Shown: positions 16,348 through 38,319 of the stretch, one piece after another
How positions within the stretch are numbered: position 1 is the stretch's first letter
Layout: every line of letters begins with the position of its first letter
NCBI GenBank assembly: GCA_032128115.1
Contig: JAQBHB010000036.1
Coordinates: 5,872-69,871, forward strand
Source of the DNA: Deltaproteobacteria bacterium
GTDB lineage: Bacteria; Myxococcota_A; UBA9160; SMWR01
Length of the DNA stretch: 64,000 bases
Reading direction: 5' to 3'
Translations under genes and position numbers: made by a program
Notes under the pieces: model-generated
The model's database searches: none
Seen by the model: only the letters and a program-made list of their open reading frames with translations
What the model was told of the DNA's origin: nothing

Positions 16348-17907
16348 GTGCCCGCGCCCGACATTCTCGCCCAGCATGCCGAGCGCATGCCCGACCGCAC
16401 GGCGCTCATCGACGACCGCGGCGACGGCCGGGTCACCTCGCTCACGTGGTCGGAGTTCAACGCGGATGTGAACCGCGTGGCCCACGCCCTGCTGGCACGG
16501 GGCATGCGCCGCGGTGACAAGCTGGTCTGGTGCGGCATGAACTCCATCGGCGTCGTGCGGGTGATCCACGCGGCGCGCAAGATCGGCGCCACCGCCGTGC
16601 CGCTCAACTACCGATTCTCGCCCGATGAGGCCGCCTACGTGGTGGACCACAGTGATACGAGCGTGGTGGTGGTGGATGCAGAGAGCGCCGAGTTGATCGG
16701 TGGCGTGCGCGACCGCACTCCGAAGGTTCGCGACGTGCTGGTCTTCGACGGGCCTCCGGGCGCCGATATGGTCGATCTGGAGGCTCTGCTCACAGATGCC
16801 CCCACGTCCGAGCCCGAGCGGGAAGAGAGCGACCAGGTCGCCGCCACCATGATCTACACGTCCGGCACCACGGGCAAACCCAAGGGCGCGATTCGCACCG
16901 GGCTCGGCGATCACAGCCAGGTGAAGGGGATGCTCGCTCTCATCGGCTATCGGCCCGACGACATCTTCCTGACCACGGGGCCCCTGTACCACTCGGGGCC
17001 GTGCGGCTTCATGCAGCTCTCCCAGAACATGGGACACTCGGTGGTGATCCAGCGCAGATTCGTTCCCGAGGATTGGCTGCGCCTGGTGCACACCCACCGG
17101 GTCACCACCACCTTCTCGGCGCCCACGCCGATCCGGATGGTCTGCAATCTTTCAGACGCGGTGAAGGCCCGCTACGACCGCTCCTGCATGAAGCGAATGA
17201 TCGCCAACGCGGCGCCCTGGTCGTTCGCGCTCAAGGAGGCCTACCTGGCCGACTTCCCCGAAGACTCGCTGTGGGAGGTGTACGGATCGACGGAGCTGGG
17301 CGTGAACACGATCCTCGAGCCCGCTGACCAACGCCGCAAGCCAGGCTCGTGCGGCAAGCCAGCGCCCACGGTGGATCTCGTGCTCATCGACGACGCCGGC
17401 GCGGAGATCGCGCAGCCCCATGTGCCCGGCGAACTGTTCGTTCGCAGCAAGACCGTGTTCGAAACCTACTACAAGGCCCACGATCGCTATGAGGAGGATC
17501 GCCGGGGCAGCCACCATACGGTGGGTGACGTGGCCTACTTCGACGAAGAGGGTTTCTACTACATCTGCGACCGCAAGAAGGACATGATCATCTCGGGTGG
17601 GATGAACATCTACCCCGCCGAGATCGAGGCAGCGCTGGAGCACCACACCTCGATCCGGGACGTGGCGGTCTTCGGGATCCCCAGCGAGGAGTGGGGCGAG
17701 AGTGTGCATGCGGTGGTGGTGGTGAGTCCGGGCGACGAATTGGCCGACGACCAGGTAATTGCTTTCGCGCGCGAGCGTCTGGCCGGCTACAAGATCCCGC
17801 GTTCGATCTCGTTCATCGACGAGATTCCCCGCACCGGCTCCGGCAAGATCCTCAAGCGCGTGTTGCGCGAGCCCTTCTGGAAGGGCCACCAGAGCGGCGT
17901 CATCTAG
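16348..17907 (+). CDS. AMP-dependent acyl-CoA synthetase/ligase
   Basis: 519 aa, GTG start. AMP-binding motif MIYTSGTTGKPKGA. Later GDVAYFDEEGFYYICDRKKDMIISGGMNIYPAEIE and the C-terminal GKILKR. Confidence 0.92.
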   Translation: MPAPDILAQHAERMPDRTALIDDRGDGRVTSLTWSEFNADVNRVAHALLARGMRRGDKLVWCGMNSIGVVRVIHAARKIGATAVPLNYRFSPDEAAYVVDHSDTSVVVVDAESAELIGGVRDRTPKVRDVLVFDGPPGADMVDLEALLTDAPTSEPEREESDQVAATMIYTSGTTGKPKGAIRTGLGDHSQVKGMLALIGYRPDDIFLTTGPLYHSGPCGFMQLSQNMGHSVVIQRRFVPEDWLRLVHTHRVTTTFSAPTPIRMVCNLSDAVKARYDRSCMKRMIANAAPWSFALKEAYLADFPEDSLWEVYGSTELGVNTILEPADQRRKPGSCGKPAPTVDLVLIDDAGAEIAQPHVPGELFVRSKTVFETYYKAHDRYEEDRRGSHHTVGDVAYFDEEGFYYICDRKKDMIISGGMNIYPAEIEAALEHHTSIRDVAVFGIPSEEWGESVHAVVVVSPGDELADDQVIAFARERLAGYKIPRSISFIDEIPRTGSGKILKRVLREPFWKGHQSGVI

Positions 17908-18470
17908 GGAATCAGGTCCTCGTCGGCCGCCACCAGCGCCTGCTGAGCCTCGCGCCAGGCCTCGAACCCGGGCCCGTCCCAGGCCCGGTGATCCCCATTG
18001 CGATACGCCTGGGCGTTGCGGTGATAGAGCCAGGCGTTCATGCGGTTGGCCCGGGAGTTCTCGCGTTCGCGGATGCGTCGGGCCGGCACGCCGGCGATGA
18101 TCGAATTCGCCGGGAACTCCGCCCCTTCGGGCACCACCGCCCCGCCGGCCACGATCGAGCCATCGCCGATCACCGCGCCATCCATGATCACGGCGCCGAT
18201 TCCCACCAGACACGCGGTGCCCAGGCTGCAGCCGTGGACCGTGGCGTGGTGGGTCACCGAGCAGAAGTCGCCGATCCGTGTGGGGTGGTCGTAGCCCACG
18301 TGGATCATCGCGAAGTCCTGGAGGTTGGTCATGCGCCCGATGCGGATCTCCTGGCACTCGGCCCGGGCCACCACGTTGTGCCACACGGACGCGCCCGCGG
18401 CGATCGAGATGTTTCCGTAGAGCTGGGCGCTCGGGGCGACCCAGACGCTCTCGTGCAGGTCGGGCTTCAC
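17904..18470 (-). CDS. gamma-carbonic-anhydrase-like / hexapeptide-repeat (LbH) family protein
   Basis: 188 aa. Left-handed beta-helix hexapeptide pattern (IGDFCSVTHHATVHGCSLGTACLVGIGAVIMDGAVIGDGSIVAGGAVV) and an N-terminus VWVAPSAQLYGNISI typical of PaaY/CaiE-like proteins. Its start overlaps the stop of the M20 gene by 4 nt. Confidence 0.8.
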   Translation of the reverse strand: MKPDLHESVWVAPSAQLYGNISIAAGASVWHNVVARAECQEIRIGRMTNLQDFAMIHVGYDHPTRIGDFCSVTHHATVHGCSLGTACLVGIGAVIMDGAVIGDGSIVAGGAVVPEGAEFPANSIIAGVPARRIRERENSRANRMNAWLYHRNAQAYRNGDHRAWDGPGFEAWREAQQALVAADEDLIP

Positions 18471-19645
18471 GCGGCCTCGAACACGGCGCGAGCGCGCTGG
18501 CGCAATTCATCGCTGCAGAGGATGTCGAGCGCCGTCATGGCCAGGGCCTTCGCCCCGTCGAGCGCCGCAGCCTGGCCCATCTCGGAGCCCGCCCACTTGG
18601 TGAACTCCGGGTTGTGGATGGTGCAATGCACCGGCGCGGCTGCCAGCATGGGATGGATGGAGGGCACCCGGTGGCTGATGTTGCCCATATCCGTGCTGCC
18701 CTGGGCGCTCGCCGGCAGCTTGTCGTAGGGGAAGAATTCGCGGCCCAGGGATTCGGCGTTGGAACGAAATGCCGAGGCCAGGGGCTCATTGAAGTGGATG
18801 TCCAGGTAGTCGGCGGCGCCCCACGAGATCGCAACGTCCGCGCCGGTGGCGGCGGAGCCCGCGCGGAAGCAGGCCTCGACCCGACGCTTCAGCGGCGCCA
18901 GGGCTTCGGCGTTGGCTGCGCGCACGTAGAACCGGCCAGACGCCCGCGCGGGTACGATGTTGGGCGCTTCGCCCCCCTCGGTGATGATGCCGTGGATGCG
19001 CTCGTCGCGGCCGATGTGCTGACGCAGTGCCGCTAGCGACTGGTACGCCAGCACCAGGGCGTCGAGCGCATTGATGCCCCGCTCGGGCATGGCGGACGCG
19101 TGGGCGGCGCGGCCATGGTAGGTGACGTCGAGTTCGGCCATGGCGATGCAGGGCATGCTCACCAGGTTGACGCTCGAAGGGTGCATCATGAGCGCGGCGT
19201 CCACCCCTTCGAAGGCGCCCTCGCGAGCCATCAGTTCCTTGCCGCAGCCGTGCTCCTCGGCAGGCGTGCCCAGCAGCCGCACCCGCCCGGGCAGCCGATC
19301 GGCGATCTGGGCGAGGGCCAGAGCGGCACCCACGCTGGCCGTTGCAATCAGGTTGTGGCCGCAAGCGTGACCGATCTCGGGCAGGGCGTCGTACTCGGCA
19401 AGAAGAGCGACGCAGGGTCTGCTGTCGGCACCGAACTCGCTCTGGAAGGCGGTCTCGAGTCCGAAGGCCCCGGCCTCCACCGGGAGTCCGGCATTGCGCA
19501 GGGTCGATACCAGCAGCGCGGCGGCCTTGTGCTCCTGGAACGAGAGCTCCGGATTCGCGTGAAGGCTGCGCGAGATCTCCACCAACCCGGATTGCATGGC
19601 GTCGATCGCCCGGCACAGTTCCCGTTTGGCTTTCGGCAGGTCCAT
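18467..19645 (-). CDS. M20-family amidohydrolase (AbgB / N-acyl-amino-acid deacylase-like)
   Basis: Trimmed to ATG 19645 (MDLPKAKRELCRAIDA..). Motifs HANPELSFQEHKAA and EIGHACGHNLIATASVGAA are typical of M20D amidohydrolases. Confidence 0.85.
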   Translation of the reverse strand: MDLPKAKRELCRAIDAMQSGLVEISRSLHANPELSFQEHKAAALLVSTLRNAGLPVEAGAFGLETAFQSEFGADSRPCVALLAEYDALPEIGHACGHNLIATASVGAALALAQIADRLPGRVRLLGTPAEEHGCGKELMAREGAFEGVDAALMMHPSSVNLVSMPCIAMAELDVTYHGRAAHASAMPERGINALDALVLAYQSLAALRQHIGRDERIHGIITEGGEAPNIVPARASGRFYVRAANAEALAPLKRRVEACFRAGSAATGADVAISWGAADYLDIHFNEPLASAFRSNAESLGREFFPYDKLPASAQGSTDMGNISHRVPSIHPMLAAAPVHCTIHNPEFTKWAGSEMGQAAALDGAKALAMTALDILCSDELRQRARAVFEAA

Positions 19646-19697
19646 GCCGCGTATTCTAGCCGCTCGCTTGCGGCTACGGCTGGGGCTGCGGCGCGGC

Positions 19698-21005
19698 TCA
19701 GGCGAGGACGGGAAGCGGCGCGAAGGGCCCACCGGGAAGCACGGCGGCGGGATCGCCTCCCAGCCAGTGCTGGATGATCGCGGCGTACAGGCGGCGGAAG
19801 TCCGTGGTCACCTTCAGGTTTCCGTCATCGTCCAGGTCGCGGAGGTCGGGCATTGCGCCGTAGATGCCGCCGGCAACCGGAGCGCCCATCAGCATCGAGA
19901 CCCCGGCCCGGCCGTGATCGGTTCCCGATCCCGCGCCCGTCCCGTTCTGGTAGGCGCGCCGGCCGAACTCGGAATAGACCAGCGTGATCACCCGGTCGGC
20001 CATGCCCAGGTATTCCAGATCGAGCTGGAAATCCGCAAGCGCGTCCGAGAGGTTCTGCATCAGACGCCCGTGGCCGAAGTCGATCTCGGTGGTGCCCTGG
20101 TCGGCGTGGGTGTCGAAGCCGCCGGCCACCACGTGGAAGAAGCTGATCTGGCCGGCGTCGCTCGGGGACAGGGCGTCGTGGCGCAGGACGGAGGCCACCT
20201 GGCGCAGGTCGCGCGCCACCCCCGAGTTGGACGAGACGCTTCGCGGTCCCCACCGGTCGTTCTGGATCTCGCCCAGGCGCTGAGACGAGGAGATCAGGAT
20301 GCTCCCGGAGCGGGCGATGTGGGCCACCAGGCCCGAGCGGTCGTGCGCATCGCCGAAAATCGTTGCCCACGCCGCCAATCGGGCCGCGTCCTCGCCGTCG
20401 CTGGCCGCCAGCTTCGACGGCAGATGGAAGTCTGCGAGGCGGCGCGTGCCGATAGTGTCGTTGCTCATTGACGCGAGACTGGCGTTGATGCTCCCGCCGA
20501 ACGAAATGGCGCGCGGCGTCGCCGAGGCGCCCTCGGCGTCCAGCTGTCGCCCCACCCATCCGGTGCTGGCGCGTCCCAGGTCGCCGCTATGCCAGACGTC
20601 TCGGGCGGTGAAATGGGAGAGCGAGCTGTTGGGGAATCCCACGCCGTTGATCAGCGCGAGCTTTCCCTGGTCGAACAGGGCCTTGAGTCGCCCGCAGTTC
20701 GGATTCAGGGCCAGGGCCGTGCCCCGCACCGGGTCACGCCCGATCTCGGTGGCGTCGAGCATTCGGGCGGGGATCGTCAGGTCCGGTCGCAGCTGCCGGT
20801 AGATGCTGTACTGGGAGGTGACATCGCTGTTCAGGGGGATCACCGTGCCCAACAGATCGTTGCCCCCGTCCAGATACACCAGCACCAGGATCGGGTCGTT
20901 CGCCGATGCGGCTGCCGCCGGGCGCACCCGGGAGAGCAGGTGGGTCTGGCTGAGAACGGCCGTGGCCGCGGCGCTTCGCAGAAGCTGTCGTCGCGTGATC
21001 CGCAT
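19698..21005 (-). CDS. DUF1501-family protein (sulfatase-fold) with twin-arginine signal
   Basis: Trimmed to ATG 21005. Tat signal MRITRRQLLRSAAATAVL. Internal GGFDTHADQ and C-terminal TDHGRAG motifs are typical of DUF1501. Confidence 0.8.
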   Translation of the reverse strand: MRITRRQLLRSAAATAVLSQTHLLSRVRPAAAASANDPILVLVYLDGGNDLLGTVIPLNSDVTSQYSIYRQLRPDLTIPARMLDATEIGRDPVRGTALALNPNCGRLKALFDQGKLALINGVGFPNSSLSHFTARDVWHSGDLGRASTGWVGRQLDAEGASATPRAISFGGSINASLASMSNDTIGTRRLADFHLPSKLAASDGEDAARLAAWATIFGDAHDRSGLVAHIARSGSILISSSQRLGEIQNDRWGPRSVSSNSGVARDLRQVASVLRHDALSPSDAGQISFFHVVAGGFDTHADQGTTEIDFGHGRLMQNLSDALADFQLDLEYLGMADRVITLVYSEFGRRAYQNGTGAGSGTDHGRAGVSMLMGAPVAGGIYGAMPDLRDLDDDGNLKVTTDFRRLYAAIIQHWLGGDPAAVLPGGPFAPLPVLA

Positions 21006-21016
21006 GGGGGGTCTCC

Positions 21017-22411
21017 TCAGTGCACCTGGAACTCGGGAAGCGTGAGAAAAAGCGCGACGAGCCTGCGAAAATCGCGCTCGTACCACGCGTTGCTCCCCAG
21101 GTCCTCCTCGTCCACCGAGTCGATCAGCACGCGCCGGGTGGTGTCGGGCAGGGTCAGTTCGAAACGCGCTGCAAGCGAGTCCACGACCTGCGCCGCCGTA
21201 GTGGCGGTCTCGCCGAAGTACCGGATCGGGTCAAAGCGGTAGGAAACGATCCCGTCGGTACCGACGGCCAGATCCTCGGCGAACTCCACCCGTGCCAGGT
21301 ACTGGCTGGTGGTGAGCCACGCTTCGCCCCCGGTCCAGCCCTGTACGCCCGGCGGGTTGAACAGCTCCATGCCCATGCGCCGCATCGCGCGCGGCAGGGT
21401 CTCCATGAGAGTGCCCACACCCAGGTCCCAGATCGCCTGCAGCACGAACTCGACCGGGTTCTTGGCGCTCGATCGGCGCGCGCGCTCGGAATAGAACTCG
21501 TCGTGGGTCAAGATCGCGAAGACCAGGTCGCGGATCATGTAGCCGCTGTCGACGAAGGCATCGGCCAGCTCGTCCACCAGACCGAGATCCGGATCGGGGT
21601 ACGCGAACCAGGCCCAGAGCTTGCGCGAGATGAAATGCGCCAGCGTGGGACGCCCGCTGGTGTCCCGGTGTGTGAACAGGAGATCGATGACGTTTCGATC
21701 CGGCGGAAACTGCTCGCCTTCGGGGGTCTCCACGCCCAATTGGCCAACCGTTTCGAACTGCCGGTCTGCGAACAGGCGCTTGATGCCGTTGTCCCAGTGG
21801 TTGTGCGCGACGATGCTCCGGCCCTCCTCCCGCAGGATGCGGAAGCCCGCGAGGGACCGCGCCATGGCGACCACGTCGTCCTGGGTGTAGTTCGGGAAAC
21901 CCCTCACGTCCGTCGGGCCCAGGGTGAACAGCTCCATCAACTCGCGCCCGTAGTTCTCGTTGGGCGCATCCTTCGAGCTGATCGCTCCGTCCAGGAAGCG
22001 GAGCATGGCCGGGTCCCGGGTCACCTGATGGAGCAGGTCGCGAAAGGGGCCGAGCCCGTACATCCGGAACGTCGCGTTCTGGCGGGCCAGGTCATCGATT
22101 CGGACTCCCACATCGTAGGAGGACGGGAAGTGATCGTGCCAGAAGAGCACCATCTTCTCGTGGAGGCGCCACTCGCGGCTCAGCATCCGCCGCAGCCACC
22201 AGCGCTGGAGCGTCTCCAGGTCGGACCTCCTGCGGCCGTCGCCAGAGGGGCCGACCGCCGGGCTGGGCTCGGCGTCCAGCAGATCTTCGACTGCCCGTCG
22301 TCGGGTCTGGCCCGGCAGCTGTTCGAGGTCCGTCTTGTCGGCGCAGAAAGCCGCGCGTCGCAATAGATGCAACACGTCGCGCTGGTTCAGCCGGCTTCCG
22401 GCGCCCCCCAT
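21017..22411 (-). CDS. DUF1800-family protein
   Basis: 464 aa. N-terminal VLHLLRRAAFCA and internal FWHDHF, ENYGRELMELFTLG motifs are typical of DUF1800. It sits 11 nt upstream of its usual DUF1501 partner. Confidence 0.8.
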   Translation of the reverse strand: MGGAGSRLNQRDVLHLLRRAAFCADKTDLEQLPGQTRRRAVEDLLDAEPSPAVGPSGDGRRRSDLETLQRWWLRRMLSREWRLHEKMVLFWHDHFPSSYDVGVRIDDLARQNATFRMYGLGPFRDLLHQVTRDPAMLRFLDGAISSKDAPNENYGRELMELFTLGPTDVRGFPNYTQDDVVAMARSLAGFRILREEGRSIVAHNHWDNGIKRLFADRQFETVGQLGVETPEGEQFPPDRNVIDLLFTHRDTSGRPTLAHFISRKLWAWFAYPDPDLGLVDELADAFVDSGYMIRDLVFAILTHDEFYSERARRSSAKNPVEFVLQAIWDLGVGTLMETLPRAMRRMGMELFNPPGVQGWTGGEAWLTTSQYLARVEFAEDLAVGTDGIVSYRFDPIRYFGETATTAAQVVDSLAARFELTLPDTTRRVLIDSVDEEDLGSNAWYERDFRRLVALFLTLPEFQVH

Positions 22412-22593: not shown

Positions 22594-23571
22594 ATGCGCG
22601 CAATCGTGGTCGAGCGTCTGCTGGAGAGTCCGAGTGAGCTTGGGGTGAAGGAGATTCCCGAGCCCGAGCTCGCGCCGGGCACGCTGAAGCTCGACGTACG
22701 CGCCGCCGGCTGCAACTTCTTCGACATTCTGATGGTCCAGGGGCGCTACCAGGTGAAGCCGCCGCTTCCCTTCGTACCCGGCGCCGAGATCGCCGGCGTG
22801 GTGCGCGAAGCGGGGGAGGGCGCCGGAGACTTCGCAGTGGGTGACCGGGTGTTCGGAACCGCTGGCCTGGGCGGATTCGCCGAAACGGCGCTGCTGCCGG
22901 CTCGCGGGGCCTACAAGTTGCCCGAGGCCATGTCTTTCGAAGAAGGTGCCGCCCTGCCCATCATCTATCCCACGTCCTACGCGGGTCTGGTATACCGCGC
23001 CAACCTGCAGGCGGGCGAGAACCTGCTGGTGCATGCGGCGGCGGGCGGTGTGGGCATCGCTGCGGTGCAGATCGGAAAGGCCCTGGGCGCCCGCGTGATC
23101 GCCACCGCCGGCGGGGCCGACAAGCTCGAGGTGGCGCGCCGGGCCGGTGCCGACGAGCTGATCGACTATCGCGAAGAGGACTTCGTCGCCCGCGTGAAGG
23201 AGCTCACCGAGGGCCGGGGAGCGGACGTCATCTACGACCCGGTGGGCGGAGATGTCTTCGACAAGTCGCTGAAGTGCATTGCGTGGAATGGGCGCCTGCT
23301 GGTGATCGGATTCGCCAGCGGTCGCATTCCCGAGGTGAAGGTCAACCGAATCCTGCTCAAGAACATCGCCATCACCGGCCTGCACTGGGGGGCGCACGTC
23401 AGCCACGACCCGGGCAAGATCGAGCCCACCTTCAGGGCGCTGTTCGCGCTCTACGAGCAGGGCAAGATCGAGCCGGTGATCTTCAAGCGCTACTCACTGG
23501 ACGAGGTCCCCACGGCTCTCGAGGCCCTGGCCTCGCGCAAGACCTACGGGAAGCTCGTCATCACTCCCTGA
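22594..23571 (+). CDS. NADPH:quinone oxidoreductase / zeta-crystallin-type medium-chain dehydrogenase
   Basis: 325 aa. GGAGAG upstream. PFVPGAEIAGVV and the nucleotide-binding VHAAAGGVGIAAVQIGKALGARV. Confidence 0.88.
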   Translation: MRAIVVERLLESPSELGVKEIPEPELAPGTLKLDVRAAGCNFFDILMVQGRYQVKPPLPFVPGAEIAGVVREAGEGAGDFAVGDRVFGTAGLGGFAETALLPARGAYKLPEAMSFEEGAALPIIYPTSYAGLVYRANLQAGENLLVHAAAGGVGIAAVQIGKALGARVIATAGGADKLEVARRAGADELIDYREEDFVARVKELTEGRGADVIYDPVGGDVFDKSLKCIAWNGRLLVIGFASGRIPEVKVNRILLKNIAITGLHWGAHVSHDPGKIEPTFRALFALYEQGKIEPVIFKRYSLDEVPTALEALASRKTYGKLVITP

Positions 23572-23576
23572 AGCCC

Positions 23577-24437
23577 TTGTCGCCGCTCGCCTTCGCGAAG
23601 TATCACGCGCTGGGAAACGACTATCTGGTGGTGGAGGCCGCGTCGTGGTCGCCCTGGCTCACGGTGTCGGCATTGCGCCGCATCCAGGATCGCCACCTCG
23701 GGATTGGCGCGGATGGCGTACTGGTGCGCGACGCCGATCCGGCGCCCGGGCGCTTCGCCCTTCGCATCTTCAATCCCGACGGATCCGAGGCGGAAAAGAG
23801 CGGCAACGGCCTGCGGATCTTCGCCCGATACCTGTGGGACGCCGGCCGTGTGGGCGACGCCCCGTTCCCCGTGCACACGCCCGGAGGCGAAGTCTCCTGC
23901 CACGTGCGCCGTGGCGGGCGCTCGGTACAGGTGGAGATGGGGCGGGTTTCGTTCGACAGCCGCCAGATCCCGGTGGCCGGACCGCCGCGCGAGGTGCTGC
24001 GCGAGGCGCTTTCGGTGGCGGGCCGCGAACTGGAGTTCTCGGCCGCGAGCGTCGGCAATCCCCACTGCGTGCTGATCCGCGACTCGGTCTCCGAAGCCGA
24101 GACGCGCGAGTTGGGACCGCTCATCGAGAACGACGCGCGCTTTCCGAACCGCACCAATGTGCAGTTTGCCCGGGTGCGCAACCGCCAGAACCTGGAGATC
24201 CAGATCTGGGAGCGCGGCGCGGGCTACACCCTGGCCTCGGGCACCAGCGCCAGCGCTGCGGCGGCCGTGGCGCATCGCCTGGGCCTCTGCGACGCCCACA
24301 TGACCGTGCACATGCCCGGCGGCGCGCTGGCGATCGAGCTCACCGAAGCCGCAGGCGTGATCCTCACCGGGCCGGTCACCCGCGTCATGCAGGGAACTCT
24401 CGATCCCCGGACCCTTCAGGACCTGGCCTGGAGATGA
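23577..24437 (+). CDS. diaminopimelate-epimerase (DapF) family protein with both catalytic Cys positions occupied by Ser
   Basis: Frame of track ORF 23274..24437. It can only start after the upstream stop (23571), and I chose TTG 23577 (start uncertain). DapF blocks YHALGNDY, FNPDGSEAEKSGNGLRIFARY, VGNPHCV, WERGAGYTLASGTSASAAA. E. coli DapF has QCGNGARC and ACGSGACA at the two aligned sites. Confidence 0.8.
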   Translation: MSPLAFAKYHALGNDYLVVEAASWSPWLTVSALRRIQDRHLGIGADGVLVRDADPAPGRFALRIFNPDGSEAEKSGNGLRIFARYLWDAGRVGDAPFPVHTPGGEVSCHVRRGGRSVQVEMGRVSFDSRQIPVAGPPREVLREALSVAGRELEFSAASVGNPHCVLIRDSVSEAETRELGPLIENDARFPNRTNVQFARVRNRQNLEIQIWERGAGYTLASGTSASAAAAVAHRLGLCDAHMTVHMPGGALAIELTEAAGVILTGPVTRVMQGTLDPRTLQDLAWR

Positions 24438-25866
24438 ACTTCGCTCCGGGCCGGGGGCTATTGAACGAAACGAGCCGACCCGGGGCCCACGCCAGGGTCG
24501 CCGAAACCACCGCCGCGGCGACCAGCCACACCGAGTAGCGATAGTCGATCGCCGGAGCGAGCACCGCCAGAGGCACCACGGACAGCAAGCCGCTCGCAGC
24601 GATCGCCCGCGCGACGCGAGTCCTCTCGTCTCGTGCCCGCCAGGAGAATCCGAATACCAGCGTCGCGAGCAGCAGGTAGACCCACGGCAGACACGGGAGG
24701 CTGCCCTCGCAGGCGTCGAGCAGACTCTTGAGTGGTGCGTAGCCTGGGCGCGGCGAGAACTCGAGGGAGAACGTGTAGCCTTCGATCGGCTCGAACACGT
24801 GGACGAAGACCGGATCGGGTGCGAAGAGGACCGCTCGCATGATTCGGCCCCGATGGACCAGGTACTCCCGGGGGTGATCGACGATCGCTGCGAGCCAGGT
24901 TCCCAGGATCTCCCAGGACTCGCGAGTCGTGAGATGGGCGTGGTCGATGTCCTGGGTGAGCCGGCCGTCGACGCGCACGCGGCGGTAGTCGCAGCGGTAG
25001 GTCCTCGAGATCCAGCGCAGGCGCTTCAGGTCGAGGTCGGCTCGCGTGATCGCGGAACGTGGCACCAGGAGTTCGTTTCTCATGAGCGAGATCTGGGACA
25101 GGTCCCAGAGTGGGACGGCGGTGAAATAGGCCGTCCTCTTCACGCCCACGGTATTGACGACGGCCGCCCCTGAGATCATCGCCACCCCCAACGCGGCAAA
25201 GGCGCCGATCCGGCCCACCCGGCGCGACGCCAGCAGGGAATCCGCCAGCAGCCACAGCAGGGGCAGCACCGTCAAGAGGTTGTTGAAGCGAACCGCCAGG
25301 GCGTAGAACGCGAAGGGGAGCGCGGCCATGGCGGGCCCCTTCCTGCCACTTGCACGGGCCTGTAGCGTTAGCCCGCTCGTCGCCATCAGGGCGGACATGG
25401 AGCCCGAGTCTTTCGAGATGGTCGCCAGCACGCCGAATACCGGGGGGAAGAATCCGAGACCGAGCACGAGCAGTCCGCGCCCGACGGCGCCTTGCGCCAG
25501 GTTCGAGGCGATCAGCGCGAGGCCCGCCCAGTAGCCTCCGGCCTGCACGACGAGCATTCCGCTCGGCCCGAAGCTCACCTGATTCGTCAATTTCCACAGG
25601 TAGACCATGATCGGGGGGTGGGAGTTGTCGATTTCCCCGCTCGCGGCCTGTTGCAGCTGCCACGTGGCGTCCCACTCCATGAAGCCCGGAAAGAAGAGAT
25701 ACAGCGTGGCTGAAAACCCGATGACGCTCGCTAGCCAGGGCGCCCACGCCTTCTGGGACCGCCCCCTCGCTTGCTCCCCTCCGGCCGCGACTTCGATCTT
25801 CTGGTCCACGGGCCTTGCTACCTTGTGCCTGGCGCCTGGGAGAAGGTACCGCGCCGGGGCGCCCAC
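24385..25866 (-). CDS. polytopic membrane protein, GT-C-like glycosyltransferase candidate (493 aa)
   Basis: Ten or more hydrophobic helices. Acidic motif in the first predicted outer loop (FPGFMEWDATW), as in PMT/ArnT-type GT-C enzymes. Divergent from the methyltransferase-GT2-DUF2304 operon. GTG start; the 5' end is uncertain. Fold call not verified. Confidence 0.6.
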   Translation of the reverse strand: MGAPARYLLPGARHKVARPVDQKIEVAAGGEQARGRSQKAWAPWLASVIGFSATLYLFFPGFMEWDATWQLQQAASGEIDNSHPPIMVYLWKLTNQVSFGPSGMLVVQAGGYWAGLALIASNLAQGAVGRGLLVLGLGFFPPVFGVLATISKDSGSMSALMATSGLTLQARASGRKGPAMAALPFAFYALAVRFNNLLTVLPLLWLLADSLLASRRVGRIGAFAALGVAMISGAAVVNTVGVKRTAYFTAVPLWDLSQISLMRNELLVPRSAITRADLDLKRLRWISRTYRCDYRRVRVDGRLTQDIDHAHLTTRESWEILGTWLAAIVDHPREYLVHRGRIMRAVLFAPDPVFVHVFEPIEGYTFSLEFSPRPGYAPLKSLLDACEGSLPCLPWVYLLLATLVFGFSWRARDERTRVARAIAASGLLSVVPLAVLAPAIDYRYSVWLVAAAVVSATLAWAPGRLVSFNSPRPGAKFISRPGPEGSGDREFPA

Positions 25867-25886: not shown

Positions 25887-26624
25887 ATGGAGATCGATTC
25901 CGACAGTCTCGAGCGCCTCGTACCCGATCGGGCCGCCCCGTGGGGGGTCACGGGGAGCAAGACACTCGCTCTGCACCTGCAGCGCTACGCGTTCGCGTTG
26001 GAGCACGCGAAACCCGGGCGCCTGCTGGACGCCGCCTGCGGGGTCGGGTATGGCACGCGGCTCCTGTCCGATCAGGCCCCGGGCGTCGAAGCCCACGGAA
26101 TCGACATCTCCGAGCAGACGATCGCCTACGCGCGTAAGCGTTATGGAAATGCGGCGACCCACTTCACCTGGGCCGATGCCCTGCGCTTCAACGACCCGGA
26201 GGGCTTCGACACGATCGTGTCCCTCGAGACAATCGAGCACGTGCCCGATCCCCCTGCGCTGGTGGCGCACCTGCTCACGCTTCTGCGGCCGGGCGGCGTC
26301 TTCGTGGCTTCGGTGCCGACCACGCCGACCACGGACGTCAACCCGCACCACCTCCACGATTTCACCCAGAAGTCGTTCCGACACATGGTAGAGGCCCACG
26401 GGCTGGAGGAGATCGCCAGTACCCAGCAGGTGCATTCGGTGAATCCGCTCACGATGCTCACGAGAAAGGAGGCGCGATTGAGCGACGTCCGACGGGGCCT
26501 CGTCCGCTACTACCTGTCGCATCCGGCGTCCCTGGCCCGTCGGGTGGGAGCGACGCTCCGCTACGGATTCTCCATCCACTACTTGACCGTCGCGTGGCAG
26601 AGCCCGTCCGATCCAGCCGCATGA
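25887..26624 (+). CDS. class I SAM-dependent methyltransferase
   Basis: Trimmed to ATG 25887. Motif I LLDAACGVGYGTRLL, later FDTIVSLETIEHV and LRPGGVFVAS. Confidence 0.85.
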   Translation: MEIDSDSLERLVPDRAAPWGVTGSKTLALHLQRYAFALEHAKPGRLLDAACGVGYGTRLLSDQAPGVEAHGIDISEQTIAYARKRYGNAATHFTWADALRFNDPEGFDTIVSLETIEHVPDPPALVAHLLTLLRPGGVFVASVPTTPTTDVNPHHLHDFTQKSFRHMVEAHGLEEIASTQQVHSVNPLTMLTRKEARLSDVRRGLVRYYLSHPASLARRVGATLRYGFSIHYLTVAWQSPSDPAA

Positions 26625-27334
26625 GTTCCGGAGATGCGATTACCCTGATTCCCGCCTTCAACGAGGAGCCGCGACTGCCCGCGATTCTGGAGGGTCTGCG
26701 CGACGTGTTCGGAGAATCCGAGGTCGTGGTGATCGACGACGGTTCCCGCGACGGGACGGGCGCGGTGGCCCGGCGTCACGGGGCTACGGTGCTGACCCAC
26801 CCCTTCAACCTGGGGTACGGAGCAGCGCTCCAGACCGGCTACAAGTACGCCCTCGGGCGGGGCGCGAAGCTGGTGGTCCAGATAGACGCGGACGGTCAGC
26901 ACGATCCGAGGCAGATCCCCGCACTGGTGCGACTTCTACTCGAGGGGGAGGCCGATCTGGTACTAGGCTCGCGCTTCCTGGAGCCAGGCATGTATCACAT
27001 GGGTCGTATGCGCACGATCGCTCGCCTGGGCTTCCAGCGCCTGGCGCGGGTGGCGGGTCTCCAGATCACCGACCCCACGTCCGGATTCCAGGCCATGAAT
27101 CGAGCCGTACTCGATCTCTACACGCTGGAATTCTTCCCATCCGACTATCCCGACGTCGACGTGTTGCTCGAGGCACACCGCAGCGGTCTGCGCATCCGCG
27201 AATGCCCGGTCGCCATGAACGAGAGTCAGCGACCGTCTACGCTCCATGGCGGTCTCAAGTCCCTCTACTACATCTACCGGCTGGCGCTGGCCCTGTTCGC
27301 GGGGCTGCGCCTGGGAAACCAACGCCAGGGCTGA
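26621..27334 (+). CDS. GT2-family glycosyltransferase (polyprenyl-phosphate sugar synthase type, DPM1/PpgS-like)
   Basis: ATG 26621 overlaps the methyltransferase stop (ATGA). Motifs ITLIPAFNEE, VVVIDDGSRDGT and QIDADGQHDP (DxD). Size and lack of TM helices fit Dpm1-like enzymes. Confidence 0.85.
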   Translation: MSSGDAITLIPAFNEEPRLPAILEGLRDVFGESEVVVIDDGSRDGTGAVARRHGATVLTHPFNLGYGAALQTGYKYALGRGAKLVVQIDADGQHDPRQIPALVRLLLEGEADLVLGSRFLEPGMYHMGRMRTIARLGFQRLARVAGLQITDPTSGFQAMNRAVLDLYTLEFFPSDYPDVDVLLEAHRSGLRIRECPVAMNESQRPSTLHGGLKSLYYIYRLALALFAGLRLGNQRQG

Positions 27335-37382: not shown

Positions 37383-37566
37383 ATCGAAGTCTCGAACGAA
37401 ATGATGCGTTTTTCACTCAGTGTGGATCGAGCCCCACCGTTGAATTGGGCAACGGAAAAAGAATTCCCCTTTCTGGACAAACCGATTCCCTCAGAAGCTG
37501 CACCCGAGCTCGTCGCTCTCTTCTCAAGCTGTTGAAAACAAAGGATTTGTTGAATCCACCGGAGTG

Positions 37567-37582
37567 CGGCACGAGATTTGCT
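37567..37582 (+). promoter_or_regulatory. sigma-54 (RpoN) -24/-12 promoter candidate
   Basis: CGGCACGAGATTTGCT matches the consensus TGGCACG-N4-TTGCW at 15 of 16 positions, with correct GG/GC spacing. It lies 72 nt upstream of the PEP-CTERM gene start in a lower-GC 271-bp intergenic region. Palindrome AACAAAggaTTTGTT at 37537-37551. Confidence 0.65.
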
Positions 37583-37653
37583 TGACGAAGAAGTGCGATT
37601 TCTTGCGGGTGGCGCTGTTTCGCGCCCCGCGGGTCGTACTGGGAGGGGACCTC

Positions 37654-38319
37654 GTGTTCCGTATCGTTGCTGTTCTTGCGCTCTTCCTTCTGATTCCCGC
37701 TGCGGGATCGGCCGTCCTCATCGATTCGTTCGACGATGCGGAAAACACGACCGCAAACTCTGGCACCCCCGCGGACAACGCGGCCACGGCATCTGGCTCG
37801 TTCCTGGGGACCAACCGCCAGCTCGACACGACCTGGACGTCGGGCACCAACGACGTCGATGGCGAGATCGACTCGGGCGGCAGCAGCCTGCTCAGCGTGG
37901 CCCTGGGGTCCAGCACCCTGGGCACCGTTTCGGTCCTCTGGCAGAACATCGGGGGCGCCGACCTCACTGCGGGCAGCACCCTGAATGCCATCGGCCTCTT
38001 GATCGACTTCGACGATTTGCCGGCCGACATCACGATCACCGTGACCGACGGCAGCAGCAACTCGGGTTCGTCGGGCACGACCACTGCGGGTGGGATCTTC
38101 GTTCCCACCACGGAGGCCCTGCTCTTCTCGTCATTCAGCGGCAGCGTCGACTTCAGCGACGTGGAGACGATCTTGTTGTTCATCGATCCGCTGTTCGCGG
38201 CGACGGACCTGCAGATCGACTTCATCGAGTCGACCTTTGTTCCCGAGCCGGGCACCGCCCTGCTGCTGGGGCTGGGACTCGTGGGCCTGGGCGTGCGAGG
38301 GCGGAACCGCCGCGCCTAG
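37654..38319 (+). CDS. PEP-CTERM sorting-signal protein (secreted, 221 aa)
   Basis: GTG 37654 preceded by GGAGGGG. Signal peptide VFRIVAVLALFLLIPAAGSA. Ser/Thr/Gly-rich body. C-terminal FVPEPGTALLLGLGLVGLGVRGRNRRA (PEP motif + TM + Arg cluster). Confidence 0.85.
   Translation: MFRIVAVLALFLLIPAAGSAVLIDSFDDAENTTANSGTPADNAATASGSFLGTNRQLDTTWTSGTNDVDGEIDSGGSSLLSVALGSSTLGTVSVLWQNIGGADLTAGSTLNAIGLLIDFDDLPADITITVTDGSSNSGSSGTTTAGGIFVPTTEALLFSSFSGSVDFSDVETILLFIDPLFAATDLQIDFIESTFVPEPGTALLLGLGLVGLGVRGRNRRA

Follow-up and report, generated by a model that had tools for sequence, protein, structure and literature searches.

A widespread, candidate thiol-free subtype of diaminopimelate epimerase with serine at both catalytic cysteine positions

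Cofactor-independent amino-acid racemases are textbook two-cysteine enzymes, and at neutral pH a thiol shuttles protons far better than the hydroxyl of serine does. To our knowledge, all characterised enzymes of the diaminopimelate (DAP) epimerase (DapF) fold and of the glutamate-racemase fold are thought to need cysteines. The O-ureidoserine racemase DcsC keeps the cysteine pair, acts on a different substrate and sits in a D-cycloserine cluster. How a thiolate with a pKa of 8.5 removes a proton with a pKa of 29 is still a debated puzzle (PMC12039745). A His/Glu pair is essential for epimerase activity (PMC5885031). In the C. glutamicum enzyme (CgDapF), the two catalytic cysteines can be linked reversibly as a disulfide, and the enzyme is inactivated by H2O2 (PMC5296763). 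DapF-fold racemases with an engineered single Cys-to-Ser change are reported to be hindered in catalysis and serve in crystallography for this reason (PMC11602996, PMC12039745). Full-text literature searches, whose coverage is incomplete, returned no report of natural Ser/Ser DapFs, of LysA-DapF fusions or of thiol-free racemases.

The window analysed here, a stretch of 64,000 nucleotides from a Deltaproteobacteria bacterium (contig JAQBHB010000036.1), contains a gene of the DapF family in which serine occupies both catalytic positions. Its protein was matched twice by the Pfam domain DAP_epimerase (PF01678, E 5.7e-54) and scored 237.4 bits on the NCBIfam equivalog model for DapF (TIGR00652, cut-off 114.65), with residues 5-275 covered. 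The open reading frame is intact, and its GC3 of 0.86 is typical of coding frames in the window. The features of the locus are as follows, with conservation counted over 118 aligned members of the Ser/Ser clade described below.

22594..23571, + strand: PIG3-type NAD(P)H quinone oxidoreductase-like gene (ADH_zinc_N and ADH_N domains), upstream neighbour
23577..24437, + strand: Ser/Ser DapF-family gene, TTG start, TGA stop, 286 aa plus stop
23577..23579, + strand: TTG start codon, 5 nt past the stop of the upstream gene
23616..23618, + strand: Asn14 (Asn11 in E. coli), alpha-amine contact at the reacting centre, 118/118
23787..23828, + strand: motif EAEKSGNGLRIFAR, with Ser75 (AGC, 23799-23801) at the position of catalytic Cys73 of E. 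coli and H. influenzae
24057..24068, + strand: GNPHC block, with Asn161 (N157 in E. coli, 117/118) and His163 (H159 in E. coli, 118/118)
24156..24164, + strand: Asn194 (N190 in E. coli, distal carboxylate contact, 118/118) and Gln196
24207..24266, + strand: motif WERGAGYTLASGTSASAAAA, with Ser221 (TCG, 24237-24239) at the position of catalytic Cys217

A first-pass annotation of this DNA had settled on TTG 23577 as the start, and this choice stands. No other ATG, GTG or TTG codon lies in the interval from the upstream stop (23569-23571) to KYHALGNDY, the first conserved block, and the N-termini of homologues likewise lie 2-5 residues ahead of that block. The further in-frame starts, GTG 23283 and GTG 23274, would overlap the upstream gene by ~300 nt and append ~100 residues that are absent from all homologues. 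No clear Shine-Dalgarno sequence precedes TTG 23577, and translation of the gene may be coupled to that of the upstream gene, with which it is probably co-transcribed. The upstream gene scored 274.7 bits on TIGR02824, just under the cut-off of 296.8, and a PIG3-type neighbour is not kept at other Ser/Ser loci. The adjoining genes are unrelated, and no DAP-pathway neighbours of the gene were found in the window. An M20 amidohydrolase and hexapeptide-repeat pair (17904-19732) was considered as DapE/DapD and rejected, as its scores were only generic amidohydrolase and gamma-carbonic-anhydrase-like.

The replacement of both catalytic cysteines, which the first-pass annotation had read from an alignment made by eye, was recovered by two alignment methods. 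In HMMER comparisons, the protein aligned over its full length with the solved DapFs of Anabaena, Acinetobacter and Pseudomonas (9mro, 5ha4 and 8qzy; E 3e-53 to 9e-50), with EKSGNG opposite EMCGNG or EQCGNG and TLASGTSA opposite TLACGTGA. When aligned by MAFFT with the E. coli DapF of NC_000913, the protein had Ser75 at Cys73 and Ser221 at Cys217, and the E. coli strings quoted earlier (QCGNGARCF and TQACGSGACA) are correct against that protein. No shifted alignment giving Cys at either catalytic site was found. Serine thus stands in every alignment in place of the thiol/thiolate pair of DapF (Cys73 and Cys217 in E. coli and H. influenzae), and the mechanism of DapF cannot run as described, as had been concluded before. 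The accompanying codon argument also holds: Ser75 is AGC and Ser221 is TCG, which is two changes from TGY. Lys74 and Ile81 in the first motif and Tyr217 and Ser224 in the second are typical of the clade, and Glu212 and Arg213 in the second motif are DAP binders. No Cys is universally conserved in the Ser/Ser clade, so no alternative thiol is available to the enzyme; Cys37 is found in 96% of the clade and is missing from the window protein.

Both ends of the DAP pocket are retained. The residues that contact DAP (Asn14, Asn66, Asn77, Asn161, Asn194, Glu212, Arg213 and Ser/Thr223, equivalent to N11, N64, N75, N157, N190, E208, R209 and S/T219 of E. coli) are invariant or nearly so in the 118 aligned members, as are the backbone positions Gly76 and Gly222 and His163, the equivalent of E. 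coli His159. The equivalent positions of Anabaena DapF bind the alpha-carboxylate and alpha-amine of the reacting centre, and its Asn13 is the model for the role of Asn14 (PMC12039745). In CgDapF, Ala substitutions at equivalent pocket positions abolish activity, and the N15A mutant is dead (PMC5296763). In an AF2 model of the window protein (pLDDT 95, pTM 0.92), Ser75 and Ser221 directly precede helices 76-88 and 222-234, as in DapF. The best fold match in the PDB was ligand-bound Anabaena DapF (9mro, TM 0.90, Foldseek), and the top 26 matches were DapFs plus DcsC. The two tandem DAP_epimerase domains of the window protein make up the pseudo-symmetric two-domain fold of DapF.

Compared with the canonical DapFs of E. 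coli, H. influenzae, Anabaena, A. thaliana and C. glutamicum, the Ser/Ser protein has the same length and fold (TM 0.82-0.90) at 33-38% identity. It shares with them the DAP-binding residues, the His/Glu pair, the catalytic positions at helix N-termini and, across the clade, a pathway context with dapL, lysA and murE. It differs in having Ser for both Cys, Ile for the Cys of GNGxRC and, three residues past the second catalytic position, Ser for Gly. Directly ahead of the first catalytic position, the Ser/Ser clade usually carries Lys; in Anabaena DapF, by contrast, there is no basic side chain close to the thiols. Ser/Ser and Cys/Cys representatives can be told apart at the alignment columns of S75, I81, Q196, I210, S221, S224, M246 and V267. 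Gln196 was present in 96% of the Ser/Ser representatives and in none of the Cys/Cys ones, the position of Ser224 is Gly in all Cys/Cys representatives, and that of Ile81 is Cys in E. coli. Conservation of Lys74 and Tyr217 drops to ~80% in distant Ser/Ser representatives, and these two therefore cannot be obligatory catalytic residues.

Engineered DapFs (C73S or C217S; 2q9h, 2q9j) and the C67S or C209S forms of HisR likewise have a catalytic Cys of this fold changed to serine, and such Cys-to-Ser structures rank among the best fold matches of the window protein. However, these are single laboratory substitutions that hinder catalysis, whereas the Ser/Ser clade has both serines naturally, across phyla and with a co-varying second shell. 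DcsC (7vdy) is a close structural relative (TM 0.87-0.90, phmmer E 2.7e-37), but it scores under all true DapFs by sequence, whereas the window protein passes the DapF equivalog model.

How widespread the Ser/Ser form is, a question raised in the first-pass annotation, was surveyed in several collections. All 238 close homologues that were read are Ser/Ser. Of the best 120 database matches (58-72% identical), all had serine at the second site and 119 had it at the first; in the remaining protein the automatic motif read failed at the first site. The motifs EKSGNGLRIF and ERGAGYTLASG[ST]S were present in nearly all of these 120, and in the aligned clade members Ser75, Ser221 and Ile81 were conserved in 118/118 and Lys74 in 117/118. 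A search seeded with a Lacunisphaera protein returned 120 Opitutaceae homologues, all Ser/Ser with the same motifs; the Lacunisphaera, Opitutus and Prosthecobacter homologues found here were all Ser/Ser, and that of Opitutus sp. GAS368 (WP_091059749.1) is encoded on a complete chromosome (LT629735.1). CP070652.1 and OY782666.1 are further complete genomes with a Ser/Ser gene. Ser/Ser was also read at 85 of 87 genomic loci. When 1.84 billion cluster representatives were searched, 127 of the best 150 representatives at 50% identity were Ser/Ser, with identities down to ~40% and the first Cys/Cys protein near rank 119.

In GTDB species representatives, the clade-specific motif gave at least 600 matches in about ten phyla. 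The best 80 of these loci belong to Verrucomicrobiota, Planctomycetota, Chloroflexota, Myxococcota, Desulfobacterota, Burkholderiales, Bdellovibrionota, SAR324, Acidobacteriota, Armatimonadota, Thermoleophilia and one Nostoc isolate. A tblastn search of a plasmid collection found no Ser/Ser members, and NCBIfam holds no model specific to the clade. In a neighbour-joining tree of the cluster representatives, built with the catalytic columns masked and without support values, the Ser/Ser sequences formed one clade of 118 leaves with no Cys/Cys sequence inside; the exceptions within it were one S/C protein, one T/C protein and one with Thr at the second site. As judged from these sequences, the Ser/Ser proteins are a large, previously unrecognised and monophyletic subtype of DapF in which both catalytic cysteines are serine. 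The serine codons were AGY in 77 and TCN in 8 cases at site 1, and TCN in 74 and AGY in 12 at site 2. Since both codon families occur at both sites, the serines must be old and must have persisted through codon turnover.

We consider it probable that the gene encodes the LL-DAP/meso-DAP epimerase that operates in this organism, a thiol-free subtype predicted from sequence and context. Its product would interconvert LL-DAP and meso-DAP and so feed LysA and MurE. DAP would take the pose that it has in canonical DapF, and Ser75 and Ser221, each at the N-terminus of a central helix, would flank the C-alpha that reacts. The 1,1-proton transfer would be of the two-base kind, with the O-gamma of one serine as the base and that of the other as the acid, assisted perhaps by the helix dipoles, the retained His163/Glu212 pair and a co-varying second shell of Ser224, Gln196, Ile81 and usually Lys74 and Tyr217. 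We give about even chances to the proposal that this is a natural, widespread, thiol-free and cofactor-independent epimerase in which two serines, in a pocket that otherwise equals that of DapF, perform C-alpha proton abstraction and return.

The intact DAP pocket, the conserved serine pair and the DAP, lysine and peptidoglycan gene contexts favour the epimerase reading. It is weakened by the hindered catalysis of Cys-to-Ser mutants, the poor proton shuttling of serine, the lack of a DAP neighbour in the window and the canonical copy that Nostoc sp. CCY 9925 presumably has as well. As single Cys-to-Ser mutants are hindered, a natural Ser/Ser enzyme would need extra substitutions to compensate. 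A likely benefit would be an enzyme that is not switched off by a Cys-Cys disulfide or by thiol oxidation. CgDapF forms a regulatory or inactivating disulfide of a kind that the Ser/Ser enzyme cannot form (PMC5296763), and the clade also lacks the nearby Cys of GNGxRC. The disulfide and the H2O2 inactivation of CgDapF make oxidation resistance a plausible selective reason for the change. The oxidation-proof form would then have displaced the canonical enzyme in many phyla, and in situ in some Betaproteobacteria.

The loss of both thiols and the intact ligand pocket would also suit a DAP-binding, non-catalytic pseudoenzyme, acting as a sensor, chaperone or channelling partner for LysA or MurE while a Cys/Cys DapF encoded elsewhere epimerises. 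The hindrance of catalysis in Cys-to-Ser mutants points the same way (PMC11602996, PMC12039745), and E. coli DapF has a non-catalytic role as a partner of RppH (structures 6d13 and 6vck; PMC6061791). We regard this alternative as unlikely. In four Polyangiaceae-type loci (L041, L046, L054 and L069), the Ser/Ser gene forms dapF-dapL-lysA operons with no other epimerase. The gap between dapF and dapL is 3-15 nt, DapL scored 545 bits on TIGR03542 (cut-off 364.7), and the lysA-like gene had its best match to TIGR01048 at ~255 bits, under the cut-off of 297.9. LysA-DapF(Ser/Ser) fusions, of which ~90 distinct sequences are known from this analysis, are fixed in one lineage. A search seeded with one fusion gave 91 distinct proteins of at least 600 aa, mostly from Chloroflexota. 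Both sites were readable in 81 of them, all Ser/Ser, and the other 10 had Ser at the single readable site, so that no Cys was found at any readable catalytic site of the 91. The LysA part of the fusion exceeds the TIGR01048 cut-off, and in one case the fusion was called as a single gene within a contig of 1.34 Mb. A fusion of DapF(Ser/Ser) to MurE of the meso-DAP type and two fusions to Alr were also found, with partners that exceed curated cut-offs.

In all four betaproteobacterial loci (L012, L015, L029 and L082), a DUF484 gene comes next after the Ser/Ser gene. A XerC homologue follows DUF484 in L015, L029 and L082, whereas the contig of L012 ends after DUF484. This order matches dapF-yigA-xerC of E. 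coli (NC_000913), on which the synteny comparison rests, yet these proteins share 56-61% identity with the window protein and only 34-38% with E. coli DapF. The order implies that in these Betaproteobacteria the resident dapF slot is filled by the Ser/Ser gene, which is thus not an extra locus; this is the strongest sign that it does the job of DapF. In addition, the invariance of both serines would be needless in a mere binding protein. Within 10 kb on either side at the 87 loci, no second DapF-like gene was found, a result that speaks for these flanks only. A single DapF has been reported for Lacunisphaera limnophila, together with the DapL pathway and DAP in the cell wall (PMC5303756); its protein, WP_069963382.1, was absent from the clusters that were looked up. 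Verrucomicrobium spinosum also has a single DapF in its published gene list. An inactive protein, a possibility raised in the first-pass annotation, or one outside the pathway is unlikely in view of the operons, the LysA, MurE and Alr fusions and the dapF-DUF484-xerC slot. Among chromosome-sized Burkholderia and Neisseria records of the plasmid collection, that of Burkholderia stagnalis gave a divergent paralogue, and dapF of Neisseria gonorrhoeae is without DUF484 and xerC downstream.

It is also unlikely, to us marginally more so, that the protein has altered chemistry or substrate, for instance as an isomerase, a dehydratase or a Ser-nucleophile hydrolase whose substrate resembles DAP (N-acyl-DAP, a peptide containing DAP or a derivative of 2-aminoadipate, for example). 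The serine pair with its frequent neighbouring Lys (EKS) may resemble the Ser-Lys dyads of hydrolases, and the proline-racemase superfamily provides a precedent in the 3-hydroxyproline dehydratases, in which a catalytic Cys is replaced. GNAT, GGACT, glyoxalase and methyltransferase fusions or neighbours also occur occasionally. However, neither end of the DAP pocket has changed, and the residues that touch the alpha-carboxylate and alpha-amine where the reaction takes place are kept, so that the other substrate proposed in the first-pass annotation is unlikely. All-versus-all clustering of the flanking open reading frames at the 87 loci revealed no universal partner gene, the top cluster reaching 13 loci. 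The recurrent partners are DapL, LysA, MurE and Alr, and the other recurring neighbours (dihydroorotate dehydrogenase, squalene-hopene cyclase and exosortase) represent lineage-specific synteny. The association with DAP, lysine and peptidoglycan genes thus holds for the clade, through the operons, the fusions and the xerC slot, but not for the window itself. A GNAT or N-acetyl link was rejected as a general clue after an iterated GNAT profile found a GNAT within 3 kb at only 12 of the 87 loci; two GNAT fusions and some adjacent GNATs were seen among the Ser/Ser members.

The comparison with Cys-to-Thr dehydratases made in the first-pass annotation is not supported either. The trans-3-hydroxy-L-proline dehydratase likewise has a natural hydroxyl residue, Thr, for a catalytic Cys in a DapF-like superfold. 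However, it belongs to another family (TM 0.73-0.74 and 13-17% identity to the window protein), and it keeps one Cys and dehydrates, whereas the Ser/Ser clade loses both and keeps the pocket and context of DapF. Proline-racemase-type structures as a whole gave TM 0.66-0.74 at 13-17% identity, compared with 0.82-0.90 at 33-38% for DapFs (Foldseek), and the protein had no Pfam or NCBIfam match to proline racemase, hydroxyproline epimerase or 3-hydroxyproline dehydratase. For PhzF there was no Pfam match, and Foldseek gave TM 0.62-0.70 at 14-15% identity. Apart from the common superfold, nothing in its sequence or structure thus ties the protein to the PhzF, PrpF or proline-racemase families. The different chemistry that had been suggested would survive as a non-thiol acid/base pair carrying out the same reaction, but not in any broader sense. 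Errors of sequencing or assembly and decay into a pseudogene, in whose favour only the prior that loss of a catalytic Cys often marks decay can be cited, are excluded by the intact reading frame with its GC3 of 0.86, the same serines in hundreds of independent sequences (NCBI, JGI, ENA and Logan) and both Ser codon families at both sites.

If the Ser/Ser protein is an active epimerase, as we favour, the definition of the DapF active site would need revision, and a natural Ser/Ser DapF would provide a new test case for the puzzle of thiolate proton abstraction. Such an enzyme would escape both Cys-targeted DapF inhibitors, for example aziridino-DAP, and redox control through a disulfide. If it is inactive, there would be a hole in lysine and peptidoglycan reconstructions for Verrucomicrobiota, Planctomycetota, Chloroflexota, Myxococcota and others. 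Annotation pipelines label Ser/Ser proteins as diaminopimelate epimerase through TIGR00652 and PF01678, and the missing catalytic residues go unnoticed. The Nostoc isolate among the GTDB loci, Nostoc sp. CCY 9925 (L071), presumably has a canonical DapF in addition to its Ser/Ser protein, as cyanobacteria do.

Both AGY and TCN codons were used at each catalytic Ser site across 87 loci (the window plus loci numbered within L001-L089) of the Ser/Ser clade, that is, the DapF-family proteins with Ser at both catalytic Cys positions (Ser75 and Ser221 in the window protein). A change between AGY and TCN takes two substitutions, via Cys or Thr, and the catalytic codons of the clade follow the 'two serines' pattern that is classic for catalytic Ser residues. 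Mixed catalytic pairs were rare: proteins P0228 and P0276 have S/C at the first and second positions, P0181 has T/C, and P0162 has Thr at the second position. In the neighbour-joining tree, three of the mixed forms clustered together within the Ser/Ser clade; P0276 fell outside it. These mixed forms could be evolutionary intermediates or reversions.

The Burkholderia stagnalis replicon NZ_CP156686.1, which is 3.17 Mb long and catalogued as a plasmid, carries a divergent DapF-like paralogue (~31% identity; L092, 3405-4313). The paralogue's first catalytic site is Cys (DACGSATRG) and its second is apparently Ser (ERGGGVPLGSGSCSC), and DUF484 and xerC were absent downstream of the gene.

The window protein has Gln37 (23685-23687), whereas 96-97% of the Ser/Ser clade have Cys at this position (motif RRICDRH), which shows that this Cys, although well conserved elsewhere in the clade, is dispensable.

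Apparent fusions, either true bifunctional proteins or merged gene calls, joined Ser/Ser DapF to GNAT (P0013, P0016, P0145), GGACT (P0135), glyoxalase (P0123), and methyltransferase (P0213) domains, none of which is related to lysine synthesis. At two Planctomycetota MAG loci (L002 and L007), the Ser/Ser gene lies inside long same-strand runs of small-enzyme genes, including several GNATs, methyltransferases, beta-lactamase-family proteins, isochorismatase, and nitrilase.

Around the dapF-like ORF (23577-24437, + strand), the window contains the following features:
17904-19732, - strand, overlapping hexapeptide-repeat and M20 amidohydrolase genes
19698-22411, - strand, DUF1501/DUF1800 gene pair, immediately upstream of a quinone-oxidoreductase-like gene
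24385-25866, - strand, ORF for a predicted membrane protein of 493 aa
25815-26624, class I methyltransferase, next after the membrane-protein gene
26594-27334, GT2 glycosyltransferase, after the methyltransferase
37564-38319, + strand, protein with a PEP-CTERM sorting motif at its C-terminus

DAP-pathway enzymes occur in both the hexapeptide-repeat and M20 families. Neither protein of the overlapping pair scores as DapD/DapH or DapE: the former has gamma-carbonic anhydrase as its top match, below the cut-off, and the latter scores above the cut-off for TIGR01891. DUF1501/DUF1800 pairs are frequent in Planctomycetota and relatives.

The 493-aa membrane protein had no match in Pfam or NCBIfam, and its gene is convergent with the dapF-like ORF, the two overlapping by 53 nt at their 3' ends. 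Together with the methyltransferase and glycosyltransferase, it may form a glycan-modification cluster. Exosortase genes lie close to Ser/Ser dapF at several Verrucomicrobiota loci (e.g., L091 and L067); this is probably coincidental synteny.
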